Positions 2,322 to 47,298 of a stretch of DNA of 64,000 bases are shown in pieces; the stretch's first letter is position 1, and each line of letters starts with the position of its first letter. Origin of the DNA: Candidatus Bathyarchaeia archaeon (lineage in GTDB: Archaea > Thermoproteota > Bathyarchaeia > 40CM-2-53-6); the NCBI GenBank assembly GCA_050013255.1, contig JBEKFP010000002.1, forward strand, positions 96,001 through 160,000, read 5' to 3'. Position numbers and translations under genes: made by a program. Under the pieces are notes generated by a model that saw only the letters and a program-made list of their open reading frames with translations, searched no databases and was not told the origin of the DNA.

Positions 2322-3236
2322 TTGCGAGTTCTGATTTTCGGAGCAGCAGGTTTCGTAGGTAGAAACCTAGTCGAAAGACTCTCCAAGGAAAAGCATGAAG
2401 TAACGGCCTCCGATGCGCTGGAGAACCCCTACGGTCAGTCCACCAAGTACGTCAGGGTGGATGTTCTAGATCGGAACGGCATATTCGAGGCTGTAAAGGG
2501 AAATGAGGTAGTCGTACATTTGGCCGCGTCTCCGCTCGTGGCGTCCCTAAAGGATCCAACGCTAAACATGAGAGTTAACATCGAGGGGACGCTAAACATC
2601 TTGGACGCAGCTAGAAAGCACGACGTTAAGAAGGTCATTTATTCTTCCGCCTCGTCTGTTATCGGAACACCCAATTATAATCCGGTTGACGAAGAGCACC
2701 CGACTACCCCTAAGACTCCCTACGCCGTCGCCAAGAAGGCATGCGAAGACTACCTAAGGGTCTACAAGGAAGTGTACGGCCTACGATATTTGGTGTTCAG
2801 ATTCTTCAACCTGTACGGCCCCTGGCAGACCTACTTGAGCGGCGCGTTGGTTCCAAACCTACACAAAACGCTACTGGAAAACAATGAATTCCAGGTTTTC
2901 GGGGATGGGTCTAGCACACGGGACTTCATTTACGTCGAGGACGTCGTCGATTACTTCAATTCGGCGATGACCAAGAATGTCGAAAACACAACAATCAATA
3001 TGGGAACAGGAATTGGCACATCGATTAAGCAACTCATCGATCTAGGCTCAAAGGTGTTAGGAGTAACCCCACGGATTGCATACAAACCAAGTCGGCCAGG
3101 AGAAATAGGTAACTTCGTTGCCGATACAAAACGGCTCATACAAATATTTGGGGCAGGGCCTCGAACATCTCTTGAAGAAGGGTTGAGAAAATCATTTTCT
3201 TGGCTAAGCGCGAAACAATCAGGAGCTCATGCTTAA
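2322..3236 (+). CDS. NAD-dependent sugar epimerase/dehydratase (extended SDR)
   Basis: GAAGFVG Rossmann motif, YAVAK (YxxxK), RFFNLYGP, RDFIYVED. Confidence 0.95.
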   Translation: MRVLIFGAAGFVGRNLVERLSKEKHEVTASDALENPYGQSTKYVRVDVLDRNGIFEAVKGNEVVVHLAASPLVASLKDPTLNMRVNIEGTLNILDAARKHDVKKVIYSSASSVIGTPNYNPVDEEHPTTPKTPYAVAKKACEDYLRVYKEVYGLRYLVFRFFNLYGPWQTYLSGALVPNLHKTLLENNEFQVFGDGSSTRDFIYVEDVVDYFNSAMTKNVENTTINMGTGIGTSIKQLIDLGSKVLGVTPRIAYKPSRPGEIGNFVADTKRLIQIFGAGPRTSLEEGLRKSFSWLSAKQSGAHA

Positions 3237-7030: not shown

Positions 7031-8164
7031 TCAGCTCCTCTCACCTGAGGAGCGAAAAAGGGTTCGACCCCAATTCCACACTTCCTCTTGCAGAGCTTGC
7101 AAGAGATATTTTCGCCAGTCATACAGAAGCAAACCTTCGAACAAGAGGAATGCCCTCCCACCGAACTCGCGTTTGAAATGTCCTATCCTAGCCATCTTGT
7201 CTTGAGGAGGCAAGTATGGGAAGTAGGGGCCCATTTCATACCACTTCTTCCCCTCGTTTCGGGCCCACCTCATACTTTCCCATATCAGCAAATTATGTGG
7301 AGACAGCTCGTGGGCATTGTAGTCGACACCACCCGCATAATATGTGACAGCGTCCTTGTAGGAGAGCAGCAATACACTGGAGATTGGCTTAGAACTGTGT
7401 GATGCTATGAAAAACCTCATGGATCCCATCTCCCCGAAACTTCTATGCGCTTCTTGAAAGAAGGAAACGGGGCTCATTTCTGACCGGGAACGACGGAAGC
7501 TCGATTGATAGGGCTTGTAGAAGGCCTCCACGCCACTAACGCTGTTGTTCTGTTCGCAAGTAACACCAGATTGTATTGCTTTTCTGACTAGGTTTCGGCA
7601 TGCTTTACTGCATGCAGCGAAAAGTTGTTCTTCCGTGCTAGTTTGAAGATCTACGATCGTCGTAGGTGTCTCCACACCCTGCAAGCGAGAGAGCCCTACC
7701 GTCGAACCGTACCTTGGTGAGGCAATAAATCCGTACTGAAGCAGTGGATTGACTTCAGTGCGAAGCGGAGGCATGTAAGCGGGAGCGAGCGTGGGCAAAC
7801 GTGCTTCCAGATAGGTCGCCTTCCATGCTTTCGCGCGTTCTTTGAGGTACCCCAAGCTGAAGTCCATGGCAGCCTGCCGCAGTTTCTTATCTAATCCCTT
7901 CGCCAGGGCTGGGCCACTTCGCCCCAGCCCCGTAGACAGAAAACGTTGTCTGAAGCCTCTCCGTGTTCCCCTGCTAGATTGGTAAACGCAGAAAACTCCC
8001 AACGGTTGCCTATCGTCGGATATGATCATGAAAGACTCGTTTGGGTAAAGAGTGGCGACCAAGTCCATCCATTCAGTTCTGTGGTAGAGCCACGCTTCAT
8101 CCGATTCATCGACGAGTCGATTCCAAAGGTGTTTGTCTGAATCGTGATAAGGGACTATCTTCAC
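7031..8164 (-). CDS. GNAT/FemAB-like acyl- or aminoacyl-transferase
   Basis: WLYHRTEW, CRNLVRKA, YYAGG, LLIWESMRWA, FKREFGG match the FemAB-related GNAT pattern. Confidence 0.8.
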   Translation of the reverse strand: MKIVPYHDSDKHLWNRLVDESDEAWLYHRTEWMDLVATLYPNESFMIISDDRQPLGVFCVYQSSRGTRRGFRQRFLSTGLGRSGPALAKGLDKKLRQAAMDFSLGYLKERAKAWKATYLEARLPTLAPAYMPPLRTEVNPLLQYGFIASPRYGSTVGLSRLQGVETPTTIVDLQTSTEEQLFAACSKACRNLVRKAIQSGVTCEQNNSVSGVEAFYKPYQSSFRRSRSEMSPVSFFQEAHRSFGEMGSMRFFIASHSSKPISSVLLLSYKDAVTYYAGGVDYNAHELSPHNLLIWESMRWARNEGKKWYEMGPYFPYLPPQDKMARIGHFKREFGGRAFLLFEGLLLYDWRKYLLQALQEEVWNWGRTLFRSSGERS

Positions 8165-8276: not shown

Positions 8277-8846
8277 ATGTCGAATCTGCAGAATCAGCTT
8301 TCATCGTTACGCGACGAGCTTAGGAATCATTTCAAGTCTAAGTGGAAGAGGTCGTTGCCGTTCTATGAAGAAATGCTAGGTGATCGCGCACGTTGGGATA
8401 GAGCTGCCTTCCTAGGATTCGGAGCAGGAAGTAGCATGTATGATAGTAGCTACTTGTATGGGGACGTGAAGGTTGGTGAGGGAACGTGGATAGGGCCCTT
8501 CACAATACTTGATGGAAGCGGGGGTTTGGAGATTGGTGACCATTGCAGCATTTCAAGCGGAGTTCAAATCTACAGCCACGAAACCGTAGAATGGGCGCTT
8601 ACAGGCGGGAAAGCCAAGTATCGCTACGCGCCAACGCGCATCGGTAACTCTTGTTTCATCGGAAGTTTAACCGTCATCCGAATGGGCGTCAAAATCGGCG
8701 ATCACGTTCTAATTGGGGCCCAGAGCTTTGTGAACAAAGATTTACCCGCCTACTCAATCGCCACGGGATGCCCAGCAAAAATCATTGGTCGCGTGGAATT
8801 AGCTGGGGATCAAGCAAAGTTCGTCTACCTAAGCAGTACGAAGTGA
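8277..8846 (+). CDS. Hexapeptide-repeat (LbH) acyltransferase
   Basis: LbH repeats (VGEGTWIGP, IGDHCSISSGVQIYSH, IGNSCFIG) and GCPAKII. ATG 8277 preferred over 8205 because a TATA-like CTTTTAAT lies at about 8238. Confidence 0.9.
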   Translation: MSNLQNQLSSLRDELRNHFKSKWKRSLPFYEEMLGDRARWDRAAFLGFGAGSSMYDSSYLYGDVKVGEGTWIGPFTILDGSGGLEIGDHCSISSGVQIYSHETVEWALTGGKAKYRYAPTRIGNSCFIGSLTVIRMGVKIGDHVLIGAQSFVNKDLPAYSIATGCPAKIIGRVELAGDQAKFVYLSSTK

Positions 8847-8894
8847 CCTCACTTCGGTGCATCCAATGCTTCATCCCTTGGGGCTGCACTAAAC

Positions 8895-9908
8895 TTGATT
8901 TTGCCAGTGCTGAGGTGCCCCGACTGCAGACTTCCAATCAAAGATTTCGTATGTCCAATTTGTAAGAGAGATTTTCGCACAGGTGACAAGCCATACTTAG
9001 ATTTCCTACCCGTTGAGGACTATCGCAGCGGCGATTCTGAATTCACCCAAATGCCCGACATATTCGAGAATTTTTCTAGATTCATAGGCGCAAGAAAAGT
9101 ACTTAGCGAGTATGACATAACGAACATTGAGAAAACCAACCTCAAACTTTTCCAATCCGTCAAAAGACATGAAGGGCTGAGAGTCCTAGAGATAGGAGCC
9201 GGGCGGGGGTATTTTTGCAGGTTATTTACGACAAAATACACTGCCAACTACTATTGCGCCCTCGAATATGAGCAATCTAACCTGAACTACGGTTTGAGAT
9301 TAGGAAATTTCCAGAACGCCTCGCAACTGTTCCGTGGCTCTGTTTATTCATTACCTTTCGAGGATCGCCAATTCGATTTAGTCGTCATTTCTGAGGTCTT
9401 GGAGCATTTGTCAGAACTGGATCTAGCGATGGGCGAGATTAGACGAGTCCTCGATCCTAACGGATGGGCTATAGCATCTGTCCCAAATTCCATCCTATAC
9501 ATGTATCCGTACCCTATCCTGATCACGCTACTCCAGTCGATTCATCATCTTGGAGACCAAAATGATGACAAAGGTTTTCGACTCTTAGTCCGAAGGTTTA
9601 GGCGATTAGCTAATGATAATCTGCAGGGGACTTATCATCGGCCCTTCTTTCCGTCACAGTTTGCCAAGCTGTTCAAAAATCACGGCTTCAGCATTGAAAA
9701 TCATGTTTCATCCATGTTGACCTATTTCTGGGATCCAGCATTAACCAATTTCGCCGACAGATACCCTAACTCTAGTGCAATGATGTTTTTCTCAAAAGTC
9801 GCCATCAATATCTCCGATCGCCTTCTTCAAAGTAGGTTGCCCATCATTAGATACAGTGGAATCAGACAACACATTCTAGCCAGAAAGCGCAATGAAATGA
9901 CGAAGTAA
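8895..9908 (+). CDS. Class I SAM-dependent methyltransferase with N-terminal CxxC..CxxC zinc ribbon
   Basis: CPDC...CPIC, VLEIGAGRG, SEVLEHL, SVPN. Confidence 0.9.
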   Translation: MILPVLRCPDCRLPIKDFVCPICKRDFRTGDKPYLDFLPVEDYRSGDSEFTQMPDIFENFSRFIGARKVLSEYDITNIEKTNLKLFQSVKRHEGLRVLEIGAGRGYFCRLFTTKYTANYYCALEYEQSNLNYGLRLGNFQNASQLFRGSVYSLPFEDRQFDLVVISEVLEHLSELDLAMGEIRRVLDPNGWAIASVPNSILYMYPYPILITLLQSIHHLGDQNDDKGFRLLVRRFRRLANDNLQGTYHRPFFPSQFAKLFKNHGFSIENHVSSMLTYFWDPALTNFADRYPNSSAMMFFSKVAINISDRLLQSRLPIIRYSGIRQHILARKRNEMTK

Positions 9909-10045
9909 TTCTGACTGAATCGTTGCTCGAGCCGCTTCATCAGCAGCTCTTTTCGGTGCACAATAGCGGGGGGGCCAAACAATGGAGGGATTATATGCGG
10001 CAATTTTGCGTATTAGGCCGACTTAGTATTCTGTTGTGCGACACC

Positions 10046-10891
10046 ATGTTTCTAATTTGTTTGACTCACGACATAGATCAGTTAGAGCATCCATTCTCTA
10101 GCACTCTAGGCTTGGCTCATGGACTCTTTAACTCTGCCAAAATGAGAATTGCACTTCGCTACTTGGCTGGAGTCGCTTCGGCTAGAAAGAACCCGTACGA
10201 TACTTATGATAGGATATTAGACCTTGAAAAGAAGTATGGTGCAACATCAACCTTCTTCGTTGTCCCTGCGCAGAGTAAGGCAAACGCCGAGTGCCTAGCG
10301 AGGCTTCGAGCCGCTAGAACTGAAGTCGCACTTCATAACATAGGTACTTCATACATATCTCCATCTGAATTAGCGAGACAGAAGAACGTCATCGAGAAAT
10401 TCTTAGGGTCAGAAATCTCGGGGGTCAGATCACATCGGCTCGATCTTATGATTCCTAGAACCTTTGAGTTTCAGAAACATTGTGGCTTCAAGTACGATTC
10501 GAGTTTCTTCCCACCACGGTACGGGAACAAGAGGATATACACCCCTTTCCCAGCAACGGATGGATTACTTGAACTACCGCTTGCGTTCATGGACAGCGAT
10601 TTCCAGGAAATGGCAATGGTCGGCCCTGATGCGTTGCAAAAGACTTGGACGCGCATTGAAAGAATACTGGAAGACTATCGCCGCCGTCAAGGAGTCTGTA
10701 CAATTCTGTGGCACCCTACAGCATTCTACGACGACGGGTGCGAGCTGCACAATCTAAACTATCAGCACTTCAAAGGCTTCGATAAACTTTACGAAATGAT
10801 TTTGGAATATGGCTCAACGAAGAGTGATAGGATGTGCGGATGCTTGGAGGCAATCGAGCATTGGAAAGGTTCAGAAGAAAGCATGTGGTAG
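10046..10891 (+). CDS. Polysaccharide deacetylase-family (NodB/CE4-like) protein
   Basis: LTHDID, STFF, EVALH, GVRSHRL, YDSS, ELPL..MD, ILWH. ATG 10046 preferred; TATA-like TTATAT at about 9991. Confidence 0.85.
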   Translation: MFLICLTHDIDQLEHPFSSTLGLAHGLFNSAKMRIALRYLAGVASARKNPYDTYDRILDLEKKYGATSTFFVVPAQSKANAECLARLRAARTEVALHNIGTSYISPSELARQKNVIEKFLGSEISGVRSHRLDLMIPRTFEFQKHCGFKYDSSFFPPRYGNKRIYTPFPATDGLLELPLAFMDSDFQEMAMVGPDALQKTWTRIERILEDYRRRQGVCTILWHPTAFYDDGCELHNLNYQHFKGFDKLYEMILEYGSTKSDRMCGCLEAIEHWKGSEESMW

Positions 10892-10974: not shown

Positions 10975-12114
10975 TTGGAACTCCTGCAGAGTAGGTTGAT
11001 GGACGTCCTTGTCTGCCCAGCTTGCCACTCCAAGCTACGGCTTCACATACTCTCCGAGCAACGCAAAGATGGAGTGCTTCGCTGTCCGAGGAAACATGCT
11101 TATCCGATAATCAATGGCCTGCCAAAGATACTCGTGGGCGGACTTGAAAGCGATTACGCACAGTTCTTATCCCGTTACCGAGAGGAGCTTGCTTCCGAAA
11201 ATATGGTATTCTATTCAGAGGCCAATGGTAGGGCCGAGAGTAGGCAAGATCAGGACACCTTTCGTGAGAAATGGACCTCTAAAGACACCATGGGCGTAAG
11301 CAGCTCGTCGCCTTACAAAGCATTCATGCGGAAGTGGATGTTGGAGAAATATGGGTGGAAAAACGAAGCTGGTTTTGCAGAGGGGCTAAGGGGTCGCCAA
11401 CTAATCCTGGACGCCGGAGCCGGTCTCGGGAGGGAAGTAATCAATTTGGCCACGGCCGCGCCGGAAGCGACAGTTGTGGGTCTCGAGTTCTCGGACTGCG
11501 CAGCAAATGCCCTGCGGAACGTATCCCCTCTTCAGAATGCTTGCATAGTGCAGGGCGATATTATGCGAATGCCATTCGCTGAAGATTCATTCGATTATAT
11601 TTTGAGCGAGGGTGTGCTACATCACACACCTAAAACCCAGGAAGCGTTCAAGAAATGCTGCGTTGTTCTAAAGAAAGGGGGCGAGATTGCGTTCTACATT
11701 TATCGAAAGAAGGGCCCAATAAGGGAATTTGCGGACGATTTCTTGAGAAAGGTCATTCAGGACATGTCCGTAGAAGAAAAGTGGAGGATGGCAGAGCGGA
11801 TTACCTCGCTGGGAAAGTCTCTGTCTGAGGCGCATGTGGCTGTGGAAATTTCCGAGGGCATTCCCGAACTTGGCATCAAAAAAGGGGAAATTGACGTTCA
11901 GAGATTCATCTATTACAGCTTCTTGAAGTGTTTCTGGAATCAGGAGTTACCGTTTGAGGAGAACGTGATAATCAATTTCGATTGGTATGTTCCCAGGCAT
12001 GCGCAGCGTCATACGGAAGAAGAGATACGGGGATGGTGCAAGGAGAACGCCATAAAGATAGTATGGTTTCACGAAGAAGAGTCCGGCTACAGCGTTCGGG
12101 GAATAAAGACTTAG
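10975..12114 (+). CDS. Trm112-like zinc domain fused to class I SAM methyltransferase
   Basis: LVCPAC...LRCP..YPIINGLP, ILDAGAGLG, GVLHHTP, NFDWYVP. Confidence 0.9.
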   Translation: MELLQSRLMDVLVCPACHSKLRLHILSEQRKDGVLRCPRKHAYPIINGLPKILVGGLESDYAQFLSRYREELASENMVFYSEANGRAESRQDQDTFREKWTSKDTMGVSSSSPYKAFMRKWMLEKYGWKNEAGFAEGLRGRQLILDAGAGLGREVINLATAAPEATVVGLEFSDCAANALRNVSPLQNACIVQGDIMRMPFAEDSFDYILSEGVLHHTPKTQEAFKKCCVVLKKGGEIAFYIYRKKGPIREFADDFLRKVIQDMSVEEKWRMAERITSLGKSLSEAHVAVEISEGIPELGIKKGEIDVQRFIYYSFLKCFWNQELPFEENVIINFDWYVPRHAQRHTEEEIRGWCKENAIKIVWFHEEESGYSVRGIKT

Positions 12115-29043: not shown

Positions 29044-30087
29044 TTAAGCTTCCAGGTCCGAATCAACGAGTTTGTCAAATGATGTAGAAACTGTCCTCAC
29101 AACGATTCGCTGACGCGCATCTGACAGGGTGCCCTTGATTCCTTTTGCCCCGAAACTCGAACCAAATCCTCTTGCCGGAGGAGTCAAAATGAGCAATTGT
29201 TCGAATCCGCTCGTCTGAAACCATGAGAGCACTTCTTTCTCTGTTGGGTGATGCTGGTACTGGGGGGAATACCAATCGAAATTTCCCACACGGGAATTGC
29301 CGATAATCATGTAATTCCTCAATTTCTGCAAAGGTGGGTCAGAGGAATGCTCGGCGGCGACTTCGCTGATCTTCCAGAGAAGCGAATGGGGGAGGCGTGT
29401 CGTTATAGAGCGCAAGGCAGAGTTGATTGCTTCGCGTCCCACGTCTGCTCGATCGTAGACCCATATCGAGAACTCTCCCTTTTGACGAAGGGTGGCTGAA
29501 ACAGAGGAGAACGCTGCCGATGGGTCGGGGGTGTGGTGTAGAACTCCAATCGAATAGATCGCATCGAATGTGTTCGTTGCGAAGGGTAGATTGTACAGGT
29601 CTCCCTGCACAAGATGCACGTTTGGAAGGTGGGCGGTGTTCAGGCTAGCGCTCTCAATAGCGTCACTCAGGTCGATTCCAACAACTTCCGCGCCGAATTT
29701 CGCCGCAAAGTACGCGTATCGGCCAAAGCCACAACCTGCATCGAGAACCAGTTTGCCCTTGAAAAAATTCTCAGTCCACAAGGTCTTTGCGAGAAATTCC
29801 GTCTTGTCTCCTTCGTCAATGCGCTTGAATTTTGTCCACTGAAATCCGAAGCTTCGTCTTGTTTTCTCAAGTTTCGAAGTAACGGTTCCGAGTTCCTTTG
29901 AGACGGACGCTGAGCTAGATGCCGAAGGTAGGATTCGTGGTATGCCATTGACTATTGGATAACTTCTTCCGCAATCCGATAGGAGGGTTCCTTCTTCTAT
30001 TTCTTCGCCACGAACAATCTCTTGTGAGAGATTGAAAGTTCGGTGGCAGAACGGACACACCAGTATCTCAAGTAAGCGTTGCTTCAA
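29044..30087 (-). CDS. Trm112-like domain fused to class I SAM methyltransferase
   Basis: LVCPFC...YPIVNGIPR, SFGFQW, LDAGCGFGR, GVLHHTP, NFDWYSP. Confidence 0.9.
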   Translation of the reverse strand: MKQRLLEILVCPFCHRTFNLSQEIVRGEEIEEGTLLSDCGRSYPIVNGIPRILPSASSSASVSKELGTVTSKLEKTRRSFGFQWTKFKRIDEGDKTEFLAKTLWTENFFKGKLVLDAGCGFGRYAYFAAKFGAEVVGIDLSDAIESASLNTAHLPNVHLVQGDLYNLPFATNTFDAIYSIGVLHHTPDPSAAFSSVSATLRQKGEFSIWVYDRADVGREAINSALRSITTRLPHSLLWKISEVAAEHSSDPPLQKLRNYMIIGNSRVGNFDWYSPQYQHHPTEKEVLSWFQTSGFEQLLILTPPARGFGSSFGAKGIKGTLSDARQRIVVRTVSTSFDKLVDSDLEA

Positions 30088-33006: not shown

Positions 33007-34101
33007 ATGCCAAGTTACGAAACGAAAGTCGCGCTCTTGCTGCCAGCGGAGAACTTGGGCATTGAGATGCCATCGACCAACCTTGGCAACAGGATGATCT
33101 GTGAAGCGACGAGACGAATAATCGAACGCCTGCCTGTTCACTTCAAACCGGAGGAATTTACGTTTCTAAGGAAGCCTAACGGAGAAGAGTTAGATCGAAT
33201 TAATGCATGTGACCGGGCCATCTTTGTTGGGACAAATATCTTCCAGCCCCAAGCCGTCGGGTGGAGATGGCGTGCGCAAGATCTTGGACAAATCAAGATT
33301 CCTTACTCGTTGTACGGAGTGGGCTATAGCGGGCCATTGGGGCGTGTTCCTCTGCGCATATGCCGAGAGACCAGAGACCTAGTTGAATGGTCTCGAGGGG
33401 GGAGCTCTATCGGGGTACGCGACCCTCAGACAGTTCGATGGTTAAAGCTCTTTGGAGTGAATTCGGAACTCGTCGGATGCCCTGTGCTCGCATACCCGGA
33501 TACGTTCACTGATATTTCGATTGGCAAAAATACACCAGTTTTGGCCATCAGGGAGATTCTTCTTCACAATCCAGGCGAAGGGCCAAAACAAGCTCAACAG
33601 GATCTTATCGATTGGTTCTTCGAAAAATATCCGGACGGCCGGAGTGTGGTGCAATCACCGGAAGACCTCAAGCTTGTGCATGACAGACCTATCGTTGCAA
33701 CCTTTGAAGAAATTATTAGAGAATTATCGAGAGCACGGTTCGTTGTTTCGACGCGACTTCATGCGGGAATGTTAGCCCTGGCCTTTGGTCGCCCAGTAGT
33801 CTTCCTTGCCCATGATACACGGGTTGCATCTTTCTGCGAGATGATTGGGGTGAAAGCCTATCCCTTAACCTCCGAAGGGCTGAGAAAGGCGTTGAAGGCA
33901 GCCCAAAAGATCGACCGGGGAGATTTGTCGGAACTCAAGCCTGCCGTCGAACGAGTACGCCTCCTAGTGCGACGACTGCATGAGTTCCTAAACGAGGAAA
34001 TAACAGGGTCTAGGGAAAACATGATGCGACATCCCTCCAGGGCACTTACAGCTCTGCGGCGAGCAAGAGCTCGACTGCTGGAATGGGGACCCGAATCATG
34101 A
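33007..34101 (+). CDS. Polysaccharide pyruvyl transferase-family protein
   Basis: NLGN, YGVG, IGVRD, GCPV, VVSTRLHAG, HDTR. Confidence 0.85.
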   Translation: MPSYETKVALLLPAENLGIEMPSTNLGNRMICEATRRIIERLPVHFKPEEFTFLRKPNGEELDRINACDRAIFVGTNIFQPQAVGWRWRAQDLGQIKIPYSLYGVGYSGPLGRVPLRICRETRDLVEWSRGGSSIGVRDPQTVRWLKLFGVNSELVGCPVLAYPDTFTDISIGKNTPVLAIREILLHNPGEGPKQAQQDLIDWFFEKYPDGRSVVQSPEDLKLVHDRPIVATFEEIIRELSRARFVVSTRLHAGMLALAFGRPVVFLAHDTRVASFCEMIGVKAYPLTSEGLRKALKAAQKIDRGDLSELKPAVERVRLLVRRLHEFLNEEITGSRENMMRHPSRALTALRRARARLLEWGPES

Positions 34102-34102
34102 C

Positions 34103-35398
34103 TTGGCCGGGATGAAATGGTTGCGCAAAATCAAACTCCTGATACTGGTACCCACTATGGAGTTGGGAGGCATGGAACTTTGCACATCCTTCTTGCTGAG
34201 CCATCTTAATCGAGAACTTTTCGAAATTGAACTGGTCATGGTCTTCGATCGCCAGAGTTACTTCGAGATTCCTTCCCACGTACGAGTTCATGTCTTGGAG
34301 AAAGCAGGTCTCACGAATGACACTGAGCTAACCGTGCAACCATCGATTGCGGTATCGGAAAAGAATCGGGATAGCCTGATCTGGCTGGAAACTACTGCTT
34401 TGAATCTGGCCGCTCTAGTTCGGACCCTGCAACCGGACTTAATCTTGGCCCAGCACGTCCTTGCTAGCGCGGTTTCCTTGTTGGCTAAGAGACACATCCG
34501 TTCGACCATAAAGATAATCGCGAGTGTTCACAACTTCAGCTCCAGATTTCTGGAAATTGTCCCATACGGAGAGCTTTATGCACTCTTACTTCGGCGACAT
34601 TTGAGAGAGGCCGATGCTGTTGTCGCGATCGGGCAGGGCATTGCAAATGACTTGATTATGAACTTCGATGTGGACAGGACCCAAGTCAGAGTTATCTACA
34701 ATCCGTTTGATTATGAACGAGTGAGAAAACTGTCTACAGAGAGCTTACTGGAAAACAGGTTTTTCCTGGATGGTGTTCCAAACATACTTTTCGTTGGTGG
34801 GTTAAGACCTGAAAAGGGGTTAGAGTACTTGCTTCAAGCGATCGCTCTGTCACGCAGACTGCAGAGACTTCGATGTGTGATCATTGGAGAAGGAGAACGT
34901 CGAACTGAGCTTGAGGAGTTGGCGAAACAGTTAGGTATTTCCTCAGACACCTTTTTCTTGGGCAGACGACCTAACGCATTCAAATATATGCGCGCGGCAT
35001 CATGCTTCGTCTTGCCTTCACTTGTTGAAGGCTACCCCTACGTCGTTCTCGAAGCCATGGCTTGTGGTTGCCCCGTAATTGCAAGTGAATCAGGTCCTGA
35101 TGTTCAAGAGCTACTCGGTTATGGACAAAGAGGCCTTCTCGTACCCGCGAGGGATCCAGAGGCTATCTCTGATGCGATTCAGAGGATTGTCTCGGACACA
35201 AATCTACGCGAGAACATGATTGAAGCCGGAAAAAGTCACATCGAGAAATTCACGCCCATTTCAGCAGTTGCCCAATACGAAGCGCTGATGAAAGCAGTTG
35301 TCCGTTCGGGGTTAGTTCGGCGCTCATTGGATGTCCTGTCATGGCTTACCCGGAGACATCTACCCGGATTTCGCAGGGCCAAAGCAGACCGCTCTTAG
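34103..35398 (+). CDS. GT4 glycosyltransferase (C-terminal tail derived from out-of-frame remnant)
   Basis: GGME, IYNP, VGGLRPEKG, EGYPYVVLEAMACGCPVI. Confidence 0.92.
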   Translation: MAGMKWLRKIKLLILVPTMELGGMELCTSFLLSHLNRELFEIELVMVFDRQSYFEIPSHVRVHVLEKAGLTNDTELTVQPSIAVSEKNRDSLIWLETTALNLAALVRTLQPDLILAQHVLASAVSLLAKRHIRSTIKIIASVHNFSSRFLEIVPYGELYALLLRRHLREADAVVAIGQGIANDLIMNFDVDRTQVRVIYNPFDYERVRKLSTESLLENRFFLDGVPNILFVGGLRPEKGLEYLLQAIALSRRLQRLRCVIIGEGERRTELEELAKQLGISSDTFFLGRRPNAFKYMRAASCFVLPSLVEGYPYVVLEAMACGCPVIASESGPDVQELLGYGQRGLLVPARDPEAISDAIQRIVSDTNLRENMIEAGKSHIEKFTPISAVAQYEALMKAVVRSGLVRRSLDVLSWLTRRHLPGFRRAKADRS

Positions 35399-35952
35399 CT
35401 GTCATGGAGATTCTCCACCATAATCCAGGCGAGCAAGCAAAACTGGCTCAGTGCAACCTCGTGGACTGGTTCTTCAAAGAGTTTTCCGATGGGGCCGGGG
35501 TAACGCAGTCTCCGAAAGACTTGGGGCTGGTCACCGACAAACCAATCATAACAGAGTTCCAACAGATCGTCGCCGAACTATCGAGGGCACGCTTGGTCGT
35601 TTCAACACGCCTTCACGCTGGAATGCTGGCGCTTGCGTTTGGTCGCCCAGTGGTCTTCATTGCACATGATACACGAGTTGCATCATTCTGTGAAATGATC
35701 GGAGTGAAACCATATAGATTGAGCTTTGATGGACTTGCAGAGCCCATTCAAGCTACTAGAAGGATAGTGTCTGGGGATTTATCTGGATTCGAAGCAGCCA
35801 ATGAGAGGTTGCCGATCCTGATGCGCCGGCTCCAAGAGTGGTTGGAGGAAGTCCTTGCAGGTACTCGAGCAAGCGGAATGCGACACCCGAATAGAGCGTT
35901 TACATTCTTACTTAAAGCGAAAACTAGACTGGTGCAACGTATACTGTGGTGA
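35305..35952 (+). pseudogene. 5'-truncated second pyruvyl transferase (C-terminal half only)
   Basis: FGVSSALIGCPVMAYPE...VVSTRLHAGMLALAFGRPVVF.AHDTRVASFCEMIGVK aligns to the C-terminal half of 33007-34101; no homology is evident upstream of 35305. Confidence 0.85.
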
Positions 35953-36397
35953 TTCGTCCCAGTTCGTTCTTGCGTCAAATTTGGGTTGAAAAAGGGATTG
36001 TTGCATCAAAATTCAGGGTTGCAGGGGGACATGCTGTCTTTGCACATCGTAGTGCAAAAGAGCCCTTCAGATCGAAGCGCAGTTACCTCGAATATCCAGT
36101 CTCCCCCTCAACGTCATCCAGACCATCACTTACCCCCACAGAAAGAGGAAGTAGTCTAGAAGAACGAATCTATTGGAGATTCGAAACTGTGCACATTACG
36201 TAATCTGGTTTTTTCTCTGCAGATTTCTTTGTTTGCATTGCAACTCCCAGCGGTCGATACGACCCACTTGTATTTTAGCCTTTGCAATTGAAACACGATT
36301 GGTATGCGTCAAATCATGGCGTCCTGCTGGAACAGTCATCCTTTTGTCCATTTACGGAAAAACAAATGAGCACCATTGATACCGTCTCCGGCAAGCT

Positions 36398-37240
36398 TTG
36401 AGGTGTCGTCCCTTGCAGCGAGCAGATCTGTCCATCGTAGGCATAGGTATCCGAGGCGTATCTGAAATCACCCCTGAGACCGAGCGGATTCTCCGCCGTA
36501 GCACCGAAATCTTCTACATGGATCCCCGTCCCATCGTTTCAAGATACTTCAACAAGGTCAATCGCAACTCTCACAACCTGCTCAAACGCTACAAAGAAAA
36601 TCGCAAAGCATACGACGTATACGAAGAGTTGTCTTCGCTCGTAATTAACAGTGCATTGAAGAAGCCGGGCGCCTGCTACGCAACGTATGGTAATCCAATG
36701 ATCTACGACACAATTACCCAGCTGATTCTTCAGAAAGCAATTTCCAGACGGCTCAAAGTGGAGATCGTTCCAGCCGTTTCAGCTTTGGACAGCGTCCTAG
36801 TCGATTTGCGACTTCCTATCTTAGACGAAGGGTTGCAGATCTTTGAAGCTAATAGGTTGGTTCTGCACAGACAAAGAATCGAGTCATCGGTTCCTTGCTT
36901 GATTTTCGGTGTGGGATCATTTGGTACCGTCATCATAACAATTGGACGACGAAGTACTGAGAAGAGATACCTCCTTCTCGAAAAGCATTTGCGACAATTC
37001 TATCCAAGCACCCACCCGATCCATCTCGTCGAGTCGTCTTTACACCCCCACATGCGAAATCGAATAACAAAAACAATGATGAACCGACTAGGAAAAATGT
37101 ACAAGCGAATAAATTACAACACTACGCTCTACATACCCCCGGTGCCGAAGGCCAAGTACATTGATAGGGATTTTGATTCCAAGATTCATTCAACGCGCTG
37201 GACTAGCAAAATTGTCGGTGACTCTGGGACAGGGCGTTGA
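36398..37240 (+). CDS. Tetrapyrrole-methylase-fold SAM methyltransferase, borosin (OphMA/SonM-like) alpha-N-methyltransferase homolog
   Basis: LSIVGIGI, YGNP, PAVSALD..VDL, GLQIFEA, FGVGSFG, LRQFYPSTHPI and TLYIPP are colinear with remembered borosin motifs IVGTGI, YGHP, PGVSAED..ADL, GC.TYEA, FQVGCVG, LEQEYG.EHPV and TFYIPP. Confidence 0.8.
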   Translation: MRCRPLQRADLSIVGIGIRGVSEITPETERILRRSTEIFYMDPRPIVSRYFNKVNRNSHNLLKRYKENRKAYDVYEELSSLVINSALKKPGACYATYGNPMIYDTITQLILQKAISRRLKVEIVPAVSALDSVLVDLRLPILDEGLQIFEANRLVLHRQRIESSVPCLIFGVGSFGTVIITIGRRSTEKRYLLLEKHLRQFYPSTHPIHLVESSLHPHMRNRITKTMMNRLGKMYKRINYNTTLYIPPVPKAKYIDRDFDSKIHSTRWTSKIVGDSGTGR

Positions 37241-37327
37241 TACCCAAACAGGTCTGAGGACTTAGGCTTCTTGATATTGATTCGAGAGAACAGATGTGCC
37301 AGAGCTCTTGGAGCGTGGGTTTCATAG

Positions 37328-38458
37328 TTGACAATTGTTGTCTCTAACATTCGCGTGATTCAGGATTCTGACAGTTCGCAGTTGCAAGCTCGGATCCAAA
37401 GCGACAAGCTTGCCAGTCCATTTCTGTTATGGTACCGCTTCCCCTCAGGTTTTGAGAAATACCTGAACATTCAGAACGGAAATCCCTTTCTGGCCGCGCT
37501 CTTAGTGATTGCCATGCAAACGGGGGAGACGTTAGAGGTTGCTGCCTCAGTTTCTCCCCAGCTCTTGAACGCAACTGAGAAAATTCAGGAATTGCTTCTA
37601 AGTTGGTATGGAGGTTTGTCTAGAGTCAAAGTCGTAGCTCCCGAAACAGATCGACATGAGCAAACGCGAGAGCAAACAGGAACAGGTCTATTCTTCTCCA
37701 TGGGCGTGGACTCGTTCTACACTCTTCTCAAGAATATTGAGCAGGATCCAGATCGAGCCATAACCCACCTGATCTTTATCCGCGGATTCGATATCTATCT
37801 TGAAAAATGGAATAATCAGCTTTACCCATCGGTCCTGAGAAGTGCTACCCGAGTGGCTGAACACTTTCGTAGGCAGATCATACCTGTTGCGACTAACATA
37901 CGAGACCTCTCCGACCCGGTCGTCAAATGGGGGCCGTTTTACTTTGGCAGCGCCTTGGCAAGTGTCGGTTTAGCTCTCGATGGTTTGCTCGACGCGGCAT
38001 ATATCGCCGGCGGCTTGACTTATGATCTCCTTTCTCCGTGGGGGTCGCACCCAGACCTGGATCCACTCTGGTCAACTGAGACCCTGAGATTCATCCATGA
38101 CGGATGCGAGGCCGATAGAATAGCTAAGGTCCAACTCATCTCGAAATATCAAGTCGCATTGGAAACGCTGCGGGTTTGTTTCTACAATCCGGAGAACATG
38201 TATAACTGTGGCAAATGCGAAAAATGTTTGCGGACGATGATTAGCCTTCACATAGCAGGCGCACTGAACAAGTGTTCGACCTTCCCGCATGAGATAGATG
38301 TGGAACTTCTGCGTGGGCTGCCCAAGCTTAGCGAAGGATCGAGTCCAGAAGAACAAGCTGTTATGCGCGCAAGTCTTACCACATACATCAATGCGCTGGG
38401 AAACTCCCCAAAGGACTTGGAAATAAAAAAGGCGCTTCAGGATCACATGTCCTCGTAA
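37328..38458 (+). CDS. Conserved hypothetical PP-loop-like/QueC-like protein with Cys cluster
   Basis: FFSMGVDSFYT (SGGxDS-like), PWGSHPDLDPLWS, LRVC..YNCGKCEKCLRT. Confidence 0.7.
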   Translation: MTIVVSNIRVIQDSDSSQLQARIQSDKLASPFLLWYRFPSGFEKYLNIQNGNPFLAALLVIAMQTGETLEVAASVSPQLLNATEKIQELLLSWYGGLSRVKVVAPETDRHEQTREQTGTGLFFSMGVDSFYTLLKNIEQDPDRAITHLIFIRGFDIYLEKWNNQLYPSVLRSATRVAEHFRRQIIPVATNIRDLSDPVVKWGPFYFGSALASVGLALDGLLDAAYIAGGLTYDLLSPWGSHPDLDPLWSTETLRFIHDGCEADRIAKVQLISKYQVALETLRVCFYNPENMYNCGKCEKCLRTMISLHIAGALNKCSTFPHEIDVELLRGLPKLSEGSSPEEQAVMRASLTTYINALGNSPKDLEIKKALQDHMSS

Positions 38459-38671
38459 CTAATCTTCGGTTCTTGTCGGATCCTAGTCTTCAACAAAGAC
38501 AACAAAGCAACCCCGATATGGCCAAGATGTTCTAGAGTGTTTGACATTCGCTTCATATTGTGAAAAATTCTTGAATTCTTGTACTTCTCCACCCATAAGC
38601 GCAGGTTTCGTTACTGCTAGGTTTTCTTCCATGAAGGTTCGATTTTAGAACCGAAGAATCGGCCCAGATTC

Positions 38672-39075
38672 TCATGTCGAGTTTTGTTTTAACCATTCAA
38701 TCGTCATCTCTAAGCCTTCGCCCAGGTCAACTTTAGGAACCCAGCCAAGGCGTTTCTTTGCAGGAGACATGTCCAAGGCCCTGCTGAAAGGCCCCTCCGG
38801 CTTGGATTTATCAACGGCTGTAGCTAATGCGCTCAATTATCCCTGATTCATAACACGTCCGAATTGTATTCTGATGGATCGCGAATCCCAGACTACACAT
38901 TGCCTGTTGCTGGTCGAGGAAGGCTCGACCGCCGAATACTGCACCAAACATGAAAACTGTGTCGATGTAATATTTCATCAAGATATGTTTTAGACGTTCA
39001 CGTTCGGTTGAAAGATCGATGATTTCCAACTGGGGGTCGATGCCGTGCTTTTTTTGAATCTTATGAAATCTGTTT
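38672..39075 (-). pseudogene. Internally deleted, 5'-truncated copy of the epimerase at 46276-47298
   Basis: RFHKI...LEIIDL...IDTVFMFGAVFGGR...ERISYS is joined out of frame at about 38813 to DKSKPEGPFSRALD...GWVPKVDLGEGLEMTIEWLK*; about 157 codons missing. Confidence 0.9.
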
Positions 39076-39130
39076 GGTGATGCCAAGACTTTTCTACAGT
39101 TTTGCACATGTAGGCGTCGGTGTTGTTCTC

Positions 39131-40534
39131 ATGAAATTCGACCTCCTGACCGGCTTTTTGCGAAGGCAGAAATCATCAGTGATGGTTCTGGGGTTTATCT
39201 TCACCCTGTCCGCAAGCCTGTTGAGAATACGGATGCTCTGGAGCGCTAGAGAAGGACTCTGGAGTCCGCTCGATCCTGACACAGAGACTTACGCATACTT
39301 CGCCAAGCTAATTCTCTCGAAAGGTGTCACGGCGTACACGAACGTAAGCAGGGTTCCGTTTTGGCCAATTGTTGTGGCTCCATTCTACGCATTATTCGGT
39401 TTGAATAATATAACGATCAAACTTGCATCTTTCTTCTTTGGTATTCTCACGGTCCTCGCAACTTACCAGGTGGGTAAGACAGCCTTTGGGAATAAGGCAG
39501 GCGTCCTCGCGAGCTTTCTCTACGCCGTCAGCTTCTACGTAGTTTTCGATGCGTACCGAGGCTTGAGGGAGGAATTATTCTCGTTTCTACTACTCTGCCT
39601 AATCTACTTCGCTATCCAAAGGCGAACGGGTAGTCATCTGAATCTCTTGGCTTCGGCAATTCTCACTGTGATGCTCTACTTTACTAGAACCGATGGAGCA
39701 TTGGTCGTACTGCCGACTATGCTTGTTTACATAGTGCTCTCTTCTATTTCGAAGAAGCAGAGAATTCCATTCAAGAAGCTGTTCCTGATATCAGTGATGT
39801 TTGCCCTCTCAATTGCAGGCTGGAGTTGGTATTCAGCAAAACTATCTGGAGACCCGTTCGCGGAATCAACCGCATATGCAAGTTACAATTACTTTGTTGA
39901 GTTCCAGAAAGGAGTAGGGGCCTTTCCGAGGGTCACGATGTCAGATTACTTATTCAAGTATCACACACTGACGCAGTTACTTGTGGCAACTTTGCAGGGT
40001 TCAATGTGGATTTTTCAACTACTCAGTCTAAGCCTAGCCTTTGGTTATCCCGCATACTCTTCTCCCATAGCTTTGATGGTGATATCCTTTCTTCTGATCT
40101 TGTTTTTCTCAAGTGCAGTCACGCTATGGAAAGAAAAGAGAAACTGGTACTTTCCTCTCCTCTACGCAACCGTCGTCCCGTACTTGGGGATGTTCCAGGG
40201 CCTAGGCGTTATCGAAACTGCTCGAAATCTCGTCCCATTCGCACCAATTCTCACGATCACGGTCGCCTATTCGGTTGTTAGGATTTACGGGTTTTTGGTT
40301 TCAAGCATAGATCAGCATCTGTGCTTCGGACGGGTCATTGATCGAGGAATCTTGGCTTTACGGCTTATTCTTTATGGAATCCTGGCCTTTTTCCTACTGG
40401 GATATGTTTCCGTGAACTACCTCTACCTTCTCGCTTGGGCCCTCCTACCCATCAATTTTGCAGATTTATTCTTCTTGAGTTTTGTAGCCATTCTTTGCTT
40501 AGCTTGGGTTATCCTGCGCTCCTTCGAGAAATAG
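39131..40534 (+). CDS. GT-C-type (ArnT/PMT-like) membrane glycosyltransferase, paralog of 43939-45342
   Basis: WSPLDPD..TY, RVPFWP, RGLREELFS, YFTR.DG, SGDPFAEST, GVIET.R shared with the paralog. Confidence 0.82.
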   Translation: MKFDLLTGFLRRQKSSVMVLGFIFTLSASLLRIRMLWSAREGLWSPLDPDTETYAYFAKLILSKGVTAYTNVSRVPFWPIVVAPFYALFGLNNITIKLASFFFGILTVLATYQVGKTAFGNKAGVLASFLYAVSFYVVFDAYRGLREELFSFLLLCLIYFAIQRRTGSHLNLLASAILTVMLYFTRTDGALVVLPTMLVYIVLSSISKKQRIPFKKLFLISVMFALSIAGWSWYSAKLSGDPFAESTAYASYNYFVEFQKGVGAFPRVTMSDYLFKYHTLTQLLVATLQGSMWIFQLLSLSLAFGYPAYSSPIALMVISFLLILFFSSAVTLWKEKRNWYFPLLYATVVPYLGMFQGLGVIETARNLVPFAPILTITVAYSVVRIYGFLVSSIDQHLCFGRVIDRGILALRLILYGILAFFLLGYVSVNYLYLLAWALLPINFADLFFLSFVAILCLAWVILRSFEK

Positions 40535-45718: not shown

Positions 45719-46279
45719 TCATTTGATGCACGCATAGAAATTCATATGCATCTTCTGGGATTTTCCGAAGTTGAACCCGGCAGATCTCAAAGCAGATTCG
45801 ACCAATTCATCAGACAGCCATCGATGTGGCCCTTCGGGGAGTTTCAAGTTAAGCTTTTCAAGGAGATCTAGCAGCCATTCGTATTTGCTTCTTGCTACGG
45901 CGAGTAGCAAAACTCCATTCTTTGTTAGAAGTCTGTATGCTTCATCCACGACTTTGAATGATGGTAGATGTTCGAGGACGTCCAGACACAAAGCACTTTC
46001 GAAAGTAGCATCCCTGAACGGAACATGCTCCACATCAGCAACCAAGTAGGAAATGCCTGAATGTCCTGCTTTAATGAAATCTATCGCAAAATCCAAGCCG
46101 ACCTTCACGTCTGCATGCACCCATGACAACGCTAATCCGGAAGCACAGCCCAGGTCAATGACGGAACGCCCGTGATACTTTTGCACCTGACTTTTCATGA
46201 GATCAAGATAGAAACTTTTCTTCTTTGCTTCATAGAATGAAGCGATATTGTTGAAATGAGATCTGACGCCACGTTTCAT
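45719..46279 (-). CDS. Small class I SAM-dependent methyltransferase
   Basis: IDLGCASG, GLDF, DVLEHL; ATG overlaps the upstream TGA (ATGA). Confidence 0.88.
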   Translation of the reverse strand: MKRGVRSHFNNIASFYEAKKKSFYLDLMKSQVQKYHGRSVIDLGCASGLALSWVHADVKVGLDFAIDFIKAGHSGISYLVADVEHVPFRDATFESALCLDVLEHLPSFKVVDEAYRLLTKNGVLLLAVARSKYEWLLDLLEKLNLKLPEGPHRWLSDELVESALRSAGFNFGKSQKMHMNFYACIK

Positions 46280-47298
46280 TGCCAGTTGTTCTTGAGCCAA
46301 TTGATAGTCAGCTCCAAACCTTCCGGCAAATCGATTCTTGGCGCCCATCCGAGAAGCTCCTTGGCTCTCGTAATATCAAGCGCTCTACTGAATGGTCCTT
46401 CGGGTTTCGATTTGTCATATATAACTTGCTTCGGCTTATGGCCGCTGATTTCTAGAATCATGTTAGCAACATCTTTGATCTGATATCGTTTATCCCAACC
46501 AAGATTCACCGGCGTTCCCTCAGAAATCTTCTCACACGCCGAGATCATTCCAGAAACAATGTCAGTTACGTAGGTGAACCCCCTTGACTGATTACCGCTT
46601 CCCCAGATGACATACGGATCATCCTTCCGCAATGCTTTCTCAATCAACATGCTTATCGCGTGTGAAGTGGGAAATTCTCCAGCACCATAAACCGTTAAGA
46701 ATCTGCATGAACTAGTTTTCATTCCGTACTCCTTACTGAAGGCTTGTAAGGTCATTTCGGTCATGATCTTTTGGAAGCCGTATAAGTTGTCACTAGCATT
46801 GTATCTTTCACCAGTGGAGAGAACATCATCTTCTTTCAACAAGTAACCTTCCCTATTCAACGACGGAGGGTAGACGCAGGCTGAACTACTGTATGAAATT
46901 CGCTCCACGCAACCCGCCTCATAGCAGGCTCGAATTGTGTTCTGATCTATTGCGAATCCAATGCTACAATCTGCTTGACGCTTATCAACGAATTCTCTTC
47001 CGCCGAAGACTGCTCCCAACATGAAAACTGTATCAATGTCATTTCTAACCAGGATCTTATGCAACCGATCACGTTCAGCAGCTAGGTCGATGATCTCCAG
47101 TGGGACAGTTGCTTTATGGTTAAGGCAGATTTCATGAAATCGTCCTAATCTTTTCATCCAAACATTCGAAAAGACGTTAGCGGCGATCAGTCGATCTGCA
47201 GCAACAAGGTTAACTCCCCTCTCTAAGAGTGAATCAACCATAACGCTGCCTATGAATCCGGTTGCGCCTGTGACAAGCACGTTGCTCATCTTGCTCAT
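46276..47298 (-). CDS. NAD-dependent epimerase (GDP-mannose 3,5-epimerase-like)
   Basis: TGATGFIG, SSSACVYP, YGFQK, WGSGNQSR.FTYV, KPEG. Confidence 0.9.
   Translation of the reverse strand: MSKMSNVLVTGATGFIGSVMVDSLLERGVNLVAADRLIAANVFSNVWMKRLGRFHEICLNHKATVPLEIIDLAAERDRLHKILVRNDIDTVFMLGAVFGGREFVDKRQADCSIGFAIDQNTIRACYEAGCVERISYSSSACVYPPSLNREGYLLKEDDVLSTGERYNASDNLYGFQKIMTEMTLQAFSKEYGMKTSSCRFLTVYGAGEFPTSHAISMLIEKALRKDDPYVIWGSGNQSRGFTYVTDIVSGMISACEKISEGTPVNLGWDKRYQIKDVANMILEISGHKPKQVIYDKSKPEGPFSRALDITRAKELLGWAPRIDLPEGLELTINWLKNNWQ

Follow-up and report, generated by a model that had tools for sequence, protein, structure and literature searches.

A borosin-like methyltransferase encoded in a glycan locus of a Bathyarchaeia archaeon is accompanied by a conserved small open reading frame, a candidate for its peptide partner, and on these sequence grounds the enzyme is probably not an orphan. 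Both genes lie in the 64,000-nucleotide stretch of DNA that was analysed (henceforth, the window), where they form a rare three-gene cassette with the gene of a QueC-like ligase:

36170..36238, minus strand: small ORF of 22 codons (P0306), MQTKKSAEKKPDYVMCTVSNLQ, candidate substrate or precursor peptide
36398..37240, plus strand: borosin-like class III (TP_methylase fold) SAM methyltransferase (P0001), 280 aa, without a borosin-binding domain (BBD) and without a fused core
37328..38458, plus strand: QatC/QueC-like PP-loop ATPase, 376 aa, 87 nt downstream of the methyltransferase and on the same strand

The methyltransferase gene is real, intact and under purifying selection. The ORF at 36398-37240(+) has no internal stops on translation, and purifying selection follows from dN/dS values of 0.10-0.22 in comparisons with four orthologs (dS 0.6-1.9). 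Gene callers place the start at 36413; the ATG codons of two orthologs (loci L007 and L005) align with TTG 36398.

Family placement rests on profile and fold scores. The sole Pfam match is PF00590 (1.6e-17), and the protein has no MazG domain. When the sequence was compared with all PDB chains using phmmer, 25 of 25 matches were borosin alpha-N-methyltransferases (OphMA, dbOphMA, MroMA and SonM), with alignments colinear over residues 9-251 (OphMA, 3.9e-18; SonM, 2.6e-16) and the R72A mutant of OphMA as the top single match. A Foldseek search with the AF2 model (pLDDT 94.8) returned borosin enzymes only among the matches listed (to rank 50), with TM scores of 0.77-0.86. A family profile made of the query and its 59 nearest relatives scored borosin enzymes at 1e-57 to 1e-50 (~190 bits); the family found next was that of cobalamin-related tetrapyrrole methylases, which reached 5e-9 at best (39 bits), a gap of ~150 bits. 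By sequence and by modelled fold, the closest solved relatives are borosin alpha-N-methyltransferases only. Assignment to the borosin family had been proposed in a preliminary description of this DNA on the basis of the motifs IVGxGI, YGxP and TxYIPP and of the segment YKENRKAYDVY. The translation contains them as IVGIGI, YGNP, TLYIPP and YKENRKAYDVY, and the assignment holds by sequence, profile and predicted fold; the suggested comparison with OphMA, SonM, YabN and precorrin methylases places the borosins nearest and the others far behind.

That the gene encodes a common tetrapyrrole methylase or one of the YabN type, or is a decaying passenger without function, is largely refuted, and we regard it as very improbable. 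In its favour, NCBIfam ranks the YabN model first, with 62 bits over its N-terminal half, and some relatives carry the name ‘YabN’ in JGI annotations. However, 62 bits is far under the 525-bit cut-off of the model (NF052436), and MazG is missing both here and in the ten fused relatives scanned. In five genomes reached through related loci, the YabN model matched almost exclusively MazG parts. The cobI_cbiL model of NCBIfam gave 26 bits against a cut-off of 163. A tetrapyrrole role is made further unlikely by the rest of the genome (2.46 Mb, 3 contigs), whose sole other PF00590 gene encodes diphthine synthase (Dph5); with PF00590 represented by these two genes alone, no sign of a corrin or siroheme pathway was seen in the genome. 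Decay is at odds with the dN/dS values and with intact ORFs in five loci.

The best matches in sequence and fold are OphMA, dbOphMA and MroMA, fused fungal borosins. These enzymes are their own substrates, and each has a clasp domain (BBD) as well as a C-terminal core. The window enzyme, by contrast, ends in a short, polar tail ~30 residues past TLYIPP, which bears out the earlier statement that it has no fused core peptide. As judged by length and architecture, the methyltransferase has no BBD (a five-helix bundle), and none of the neighbouring ORFs is of a size to encode one.

The active site combines conservation with one conspicuous substitution. Residues Y65, Y75 and Y97, kept in all orthologs and in nearly all relatives, align with the conserved Y66, Y76 and Y98 of OphMA and with Y58, Y71 and Y93 of SonM. 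Position A71 corresponds to OphMA R72 and SonM R67, and is directly preceded by a conserved R69-K70 pair. This arrangement had been read in the preliminary description (both Tyr kept, Ala at the Arg position, Arg/Lys before it) and is confirmed in the PDB alignment. In an alignment of 60 sequences, Ala or Gly occupies the Arg position in six of six Bathyarchaeia sequences, with R-K or R-R just before, and Arg itself is present in most relatives. In SonM, R67 binds the substrate i+1 carbonyl and closes the ‘top lock’; an R67A mutant is inactive, and R67K lowers activity ~100-fold (PMC8429565). For this reason, Ala or Gly at this position is a real departure from the characterised enzymes. Arg-independent borosin-like variants may be common. 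Alignment and tree also delineate a neighbouring clade, with eight representatives, that has Asp or Asn at the Arg position within L-D-L-type motifs.

No precursor had been noticed in the flanks of the gene. This view is not confirmed, as a conserved 22-codon ORF, 36170-36238(-), has a counterpart in every orthologous locus; it is shorter than the usual thresholds and escapes ordinary ORF calling. The ORF is divergent from the methyltransferase and lies ~160 nt upstream of it. Its predicted product has a Lys-rich N-terminal half and a conserved C-terminal decapeptide, Y-[VE]-M-[CF]-[TH]-[VIL]-[SAT]-N-[LV]-x. When the upstream regions of the five loci were aligned, a sharply conserved block appeared ~130-240 nt 5' of the methyltransferase; it contains the following element:

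36270..36283, minus strand: BRE/TATA-like block AAAGGCTAAAATAC, ~45 nt upstream of the small-ORF ATG

The element is followed by GGGAG, 7 nt before the ATG. Its sequence is the same in four loci (the window, L006, L009 and L005) and similar in the fifth (L007), despite near-saturated synonymous sites in the neighbouring genes. From their sequence and position, the two elements are predicted to be an archaeal promoter and the ribosome-binding site of the small ORF, and the promoter block may act in both directions. The orthologous peptides are:

L006: MKKPANKKSHYVMCTIANLR
L007: MESKKSAKKPQDYEMFHLTNVP
L009: MKRAKKTRHYVMFTISNVR
L005: MKGKR..., start of the peptide only, as the contig ends there

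Orthologs of 19-22 aa are found in L006, L007 and L009/L008/L030/L039, and the complete copies end at the same TAG. The small ORF adjoins the methyltransferase in five of five distinct orthologous loci, one of which (L005) lacks the QueC-like gene. Differences among the copies fall on codon positions 1, 2 and 3 in numbers of 21, 15 and 37, indels keep the frame, and conservation collapses past the stop. Because dS in the neighbouring genes is near or above 1 (range 0.6-1.9), such conservation implies selection. The ORF is present in a single copy in the genome, and 300 other genomes of the class gave no match to a degenerate pattern derived from it. A search of metagenome and genome collections with the DNA pattern of the promoter block recovered only the SPRUCE_253 lineage, other matches being by chance; hence the independent examples of the small ORF stay at five. 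No Rfam family matched over 35300-39200. Two plus-strand ORFs that overlap the small ORF (36173-36379 and 35946-36203) were considered and rejected: either the most variable site is codon position 1 or the frame is interrupted, and their lengths are not conserved.

The third gene of the cassette encodes a 376-aa protein with an N-terminal beta-rich domain followed by a QueC-like core. Conserved columns include S124-x-G126-V-D128-S129 (SxGxDS) and four cysteines (C284, C294, C297 and C300). No sequence match was obtained in Pfam (PF06508 included), NCBIfam or the PDB. In contrast, the AF2 model (pLDDT 94) matched QatC (E 3.5e-6) and QueC (probability 0.98) in Foldseek, and VIA-align ranked QatC (Z 15.9 over 299 residues), QueC (Z 13.1) and Cap9 (Z 12.0) ahead of other PP-loop enzymes. 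The protein thus has the fold of the QueC family and its C-terminal Cys4 site, and lies outside PF06508 by sequence. The match to QatC is full-length, and those to QueC and Cap9 cover the core (Z 12-13); a PP-loop variant and a four-Cys site complete the resemblance. However, similarity to these enzymes was not detected at the sequence level, the 376-aa gene has neither QatA/B/D nor CBASS genes around it, and its family is associated with glycan loci and adjoins pyruvyl transferases. QueC-family enzymes adenylate a carboxylate and form amides, and QatC and Cap9 do so on protein N-termini (PMC13279940). From its modelled structure, the 376-aa protein is predicted to catalyse ATP-dependent carboxylate activation and amide formation.

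More than 1458 homologs of this protein, at 40-50% identity, are spread across bacterial phyla. In three of the four bacterial loci examined (L012, L013 and L052, from Armatimonadota and others), a polysaccharide pyruvyl transferase gene precedes the homolog by zero or one gene; no TP_methylase was seen beside it in any of the four. Such a neighbourhood suggests that pyruvylated glycans undergo an ATP-dependent modification not described so far. The link is limited to the group at 45-50% identity because distant Bathyarchaeia paralogs (25-33% identity) lack it: tblastn detected no pyruvyl transferase within ~9 kb of them. The family occurs without the methyltransferase in eight of 300 genomes of the class. 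A search of genome contigs for related loci with the 376-aa protein alone gave no match, and a complex prediction for the methyltransferase and the 376-aa protein gave a score of 0.02, which is evidence neither way.

The cassette, which consists of the small ORF (-), the methyltransferase (+) and the QueC-like ligase (+), sits in a glycan locus that extends over at least 45 kb. The glycan setting described earlier is upheld: the locus encodes several GT4 glycosyltransferases, a pyruvyl transferase, PMT_2, an ABC-2 exporter, AsnB, a DegT aminotransferase and a hexapeptide acyltransferase, together with two UDP-sugar dehydrogenases. The cassette is bordered by these features:

33007..34101, plus strand: full-length polysaccharide pyruvyl transferase, the gene type found upstream in three of four bacterial loci of the 376-aa family
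35341..35952, plus strand: truncated pyruvyl transferase paralog that retains the C-terminal half only, 60% identical to residues 161-344 of the 33007-34101 product
38672..39107, minus strand: remnants, in two pieces, of an NAD-dependent epimerase gene that is a paralog of 46276-47298

The epimerase fragments are 73% and 65% identical to residues 295-338 and 53-137 of the 46276-47298 product. The truncated pyruvyl transferase on the left and the epimerase fragments on the right are rearrangement scars at the edges of the cassette. In a second Bathyarchaeia species (L009) the glycan context is kept, and the same three genes lie between intact GT4 genes. The three genes behave as an accessory module in variable glycan loci, and the cassette was probably acquired horizontally.

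Orthologs of the methyltransferase, at 69-79% identity, were found on four other distinct contigs, one of them from a Bathyarchaeia MAG from SPRUCE peat. Methyltransferase and ligase occur as a pair in four of the five distinct orthologous loci (the window, L006, L007 and L009/L008). In the fifth, L005, the QueC-like gene is absent, and a gene for a PaaK-like adenylating ligase is convergent to the methyltransferase. Searches of 300 other genomes of the class did not recover the methyltransferase, and its profile had no match in 400 genomes of the phylum; for Thermoproteota, the scope amounts to ~700 genome searches with overlapping samples.

Other genes of the glycan region deserve mention. 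Two class I methyltransferases, 29044-30087(-) and 10975-12114(+), carry an N-terminal Trm112p-like zinc-ribbon domain. A FemAB/GNAT-like gene at 7031-8164(-) weakly matches the PEP-CTERM-associated FemAB family, a hint that the glycan may be decorated with aminoacyl or peptide groups.

A full HMMER scan for the methyltransferase yielded 1424 cluster representatives, with identities of 33% or less beyond the orthologs. The nearest relatives are bacterial; the archaeal borosin homologs listed earlier are few, mostly from Halobacteria. N-terminal extensions of 93-294 aa occur in 24 of the 149 nearest relatives. Seven of the extensions were read; a RiPP-leader-like motif is common to most of these, and two have weak, sub-threshold matches to Frankia_peptide. 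The motif, approximately L-x-R-V-V-L-D-x-x-F-R ... L-[ST]-x-E-E-K, is found in the N-terminal 100-200 aa of P0011, P0014, P0024, P0029, P0045 and P0083, and extensions of the P0011 type are reminiscent of NHLP/Nif11/Frankia-type RiPP leaders fused ahead of the methyltransferase. Relatives with leader-like N-terminal extensions resemble the ‘type 0’ borosins (Lee et al. 2024, bioRxiv 10.1101/2024.01.09.574750). Other relatives are fused to a 2OG-Fe oxygenase, to DUF6065 or to a class I methyltransferase. Fusions of methyltransferase and ligase were sought among the 149 relatives and not found.

Secreted small-peptide genes are also seen beside relatives. In locus L015, a methyltransferase of the Asp clade (P0008 cluster, likewise without the Arg) adjoins a divergent, secreted, Cys-rich small ORF at 7432-7608(-) and is followed by an ABC exporter (8803-10467). 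A gene with a C39-peptidase domain lies ~7 kb away, in a bacteriocin- or RiPP-like setting. In locus L054, a 71-aa ORF at 2744-2959(-) adjoins P0012, the outgroup nearest to the clade of Bathyarchaeia methyltransferases; judged from its sequence, this ORF is plausibly a repeat-core RiPP precursor. Its product combines a signal peptide with two copies of the motif F(I/L)KDKGIHSAMPT(D/E), and a class I methyltransferase gene is located just upstream. A search for further related loci with P0019 returned one marginal locus. Because of the leader-like extensions and the secreted small-peptide genes of L015 and L054, peptide modification is the prior expectation for the family. The suspicion that homologs might consistently have their precursors elsewhere is partly borne out: many of the nearest relatives look peptide-directed, with leader-like extensions or with secreted-peptide genes and an ABC exporter.

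Among characterised systems, SonM/SonA of Shewanella oneidensis (a type IV split borosin; PDB 7LTC and others) offers a close parallel. SonM is likewise a stand-alone methyltransferase of ~260-280 aa, with the same fold as the window enzyme (TM 0.83-0.88) and colinear with it over residues 11-254. The catalytic Tyr residues and the Tyr of YGxP are kept at an identity of ~21%, and the substrate SonA is encoded by a separate neighbouring gene, as is the candidate peptide in the window. Differences are also found: SonA has a five-helix BBD, whereas the candidate peptide has 19-22 aa and none; R67, essential in SonM, is Ala or Gly in the Bathyarchaeia orthologs; and, unlike SonM/SonA, the window enzyme has a QueC-like ligase as its neighbour and a glycan locus of an archaeon as its setting. 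Split borosins that lack a BBD are already known from Legionellales, and 733 borosin-like methyltransferases without an assigned precursor have been described (Lee et al. 2024, bioRxiv 10.1101/2024.01.09.574750). Those enzymes, like the one studied here, have no BBD in cis or in a neighbour, and their precursors are hard to recognise. The window enzyme differs from them in its Bathyarchaeia origin, its separate sequence clade, the lack of the Arg, and a context that is of the glycan rather than the RiPP type.

The reading that we prefer, as possible rather than probable, is a minimal peptide modification of the split-borosin type that dispenses with a BBD and acts on the small peptide. The small peptide would be translated and serve as substrate, and the SAM-dependent enzyme would methylate one or more amide nitrogens in the C-terminal decapeptide of the divergently encoded 19-22-residue product. 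The missing Arg would be compensated by the R69/K70 pair or by a different binding mode. By analogy with QatC and Cap9, which act on protein N-termini, the QueC-like ligase may act on the same peptide, or else on a pyruvylated or uronate-bearing glycan. We favour a peptide substrate because the characterised enzymes and the nearest relatives look peptide-directed, and because the small ORF accompanies the methyltransferase in every locus, the ligase-less L005 included. Support comes also from the small ORF keeping its frame and stop despite indels, with third-position changes dominant, from the occurrence of small ORF and methyltransferase each in this genome only among 301 of the class, and from the BBD-less split borosins of Legionellales as precedent. 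Against a peptide substrate stand the lack of a BBD or other recognition domain, with a very short leader of ~10 residues, and the replacement of the SonM R67 equivalent by Ala or Gly in all orthologs. The cassette lies, moreover, inside glycan loci in both species with long contigs, the methyltransferase is probably co-transcribed with a ligase of an otherwise glycan-associated family, and neither a protease nor an exporter dedicated to a peptide product was seen at the locus. Shared synteny is weakly independent evidence, since the five loci come from fairly close relatives (69-79% identity).

An alternative that we consider unlikely gives a concrete form to the suggestion of the preliminary description that a sugar amide is methylated, and places the chemistry on a glycan: the QueC-like ligase would adenylate the carboxylate of a pyruvate ketal or uronic acid to yield a carboxamide or an amino-acid amide, and the borosin-like enzyme would N-methylate that amide. 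Such a route is made plausible by the downstream ligase gene, 87 nt away on the same strand and paired with the methyltransferase in four of five distinct loci, and by the location of the cassette in glycan loci of two species. Three of four bacterial loci of the ligase family also fit, with a pyruvyl transferase zero or one gene upstream. Carboxylates and amides are to be expected from a locus with genes for two UDP-sugar dehydrogenases, for AsnB and for pyruvyl transferases, and in L005 a different carboxylate-adenylating enzyme, PaaK-like, is the neighbour. A substrate other than a peptide would also be in keeping with the missing Arg, whose SonM counterpart binds the i+1 carbonyl of the peptide. 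However, we know of no class III methyltransferase of the borosin-like clade that acts on a sugar, and all characterised and nearest uncharacterised relatives look peptide-directed. The ligase family is widespread without the methyltransferase (in eight of 300 genomes of the class and in the bacterial loci), L005 keeps methyltransferase and small ORF without the QueC-like gene, and the conserved small ORF is left unexplained. Recruitment of a borosin-type enzyme to N-methylation of a glycan amide, or ligation of the Lys-rich peptide to a glycan carboxylate followed by methylation of the conjugate, is in our estimate rather unlikely. A larger protein could also be the target, be it a surface or S-layer protein, a component of the glycosylation machinery or the QueC-like ligase itself. 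Borosin enzymes do methylate protein-borne segments (OphMA modifies its own C-terminus), QatC-type QueC homologs act on protein substrates (PMC13279940), and a cell-surface locus would be a natural setting. Nonetheless, no nearby candidate has a conserved hydrophobic tail or a BBD, the C-terminal tail of the methyltransferase is short and polar, and the small ORF is again left without explanation, so that we deem a larger protein substrate improbable. The probability that remains beside the peptide, glycan-amide and other-protein readings goes to other functions.

Hundreds of borosin homologs lack a known substrate, and borosin-like enzymes without an assignable precursor are a recognised category. 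Three things are new here: the absence of the Arg from a Bathyarchaeia clade, a candidate substrate of 19-22 residues that has no binding domain, and the association with a QatC/QueC-like ligase within a glycan locus. Ribosomal peptides with N-methylated backbones are, to our knowledge, made by borosin enzymes alone. The cassette offers a very small, tractable system (a 22-residue candidate peptide and a 280-residue enzyme without a binding domain), a natural variant that does without an Arg thought to be essential, and a first point of entry to the QueC-like ligases, a large, unannotated family that travels with polysaccharide pyruvyl transferases. If a glycan amide is the substrate, borosin chemistry would extend to carbohydrates. 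A glycan amide or a peptide-glycan conjugate would represent the first borosin amide-N-methylation outside RiPP backbones, and the QueC-like family, with its more than 1400 members, would gain its first known function. The small peptide could, on the other hand, be an ordinary peptide substrate; if so, borosin-like systems would reach Bathyarchaeia, and a new minimum for substrate recognition would be set.
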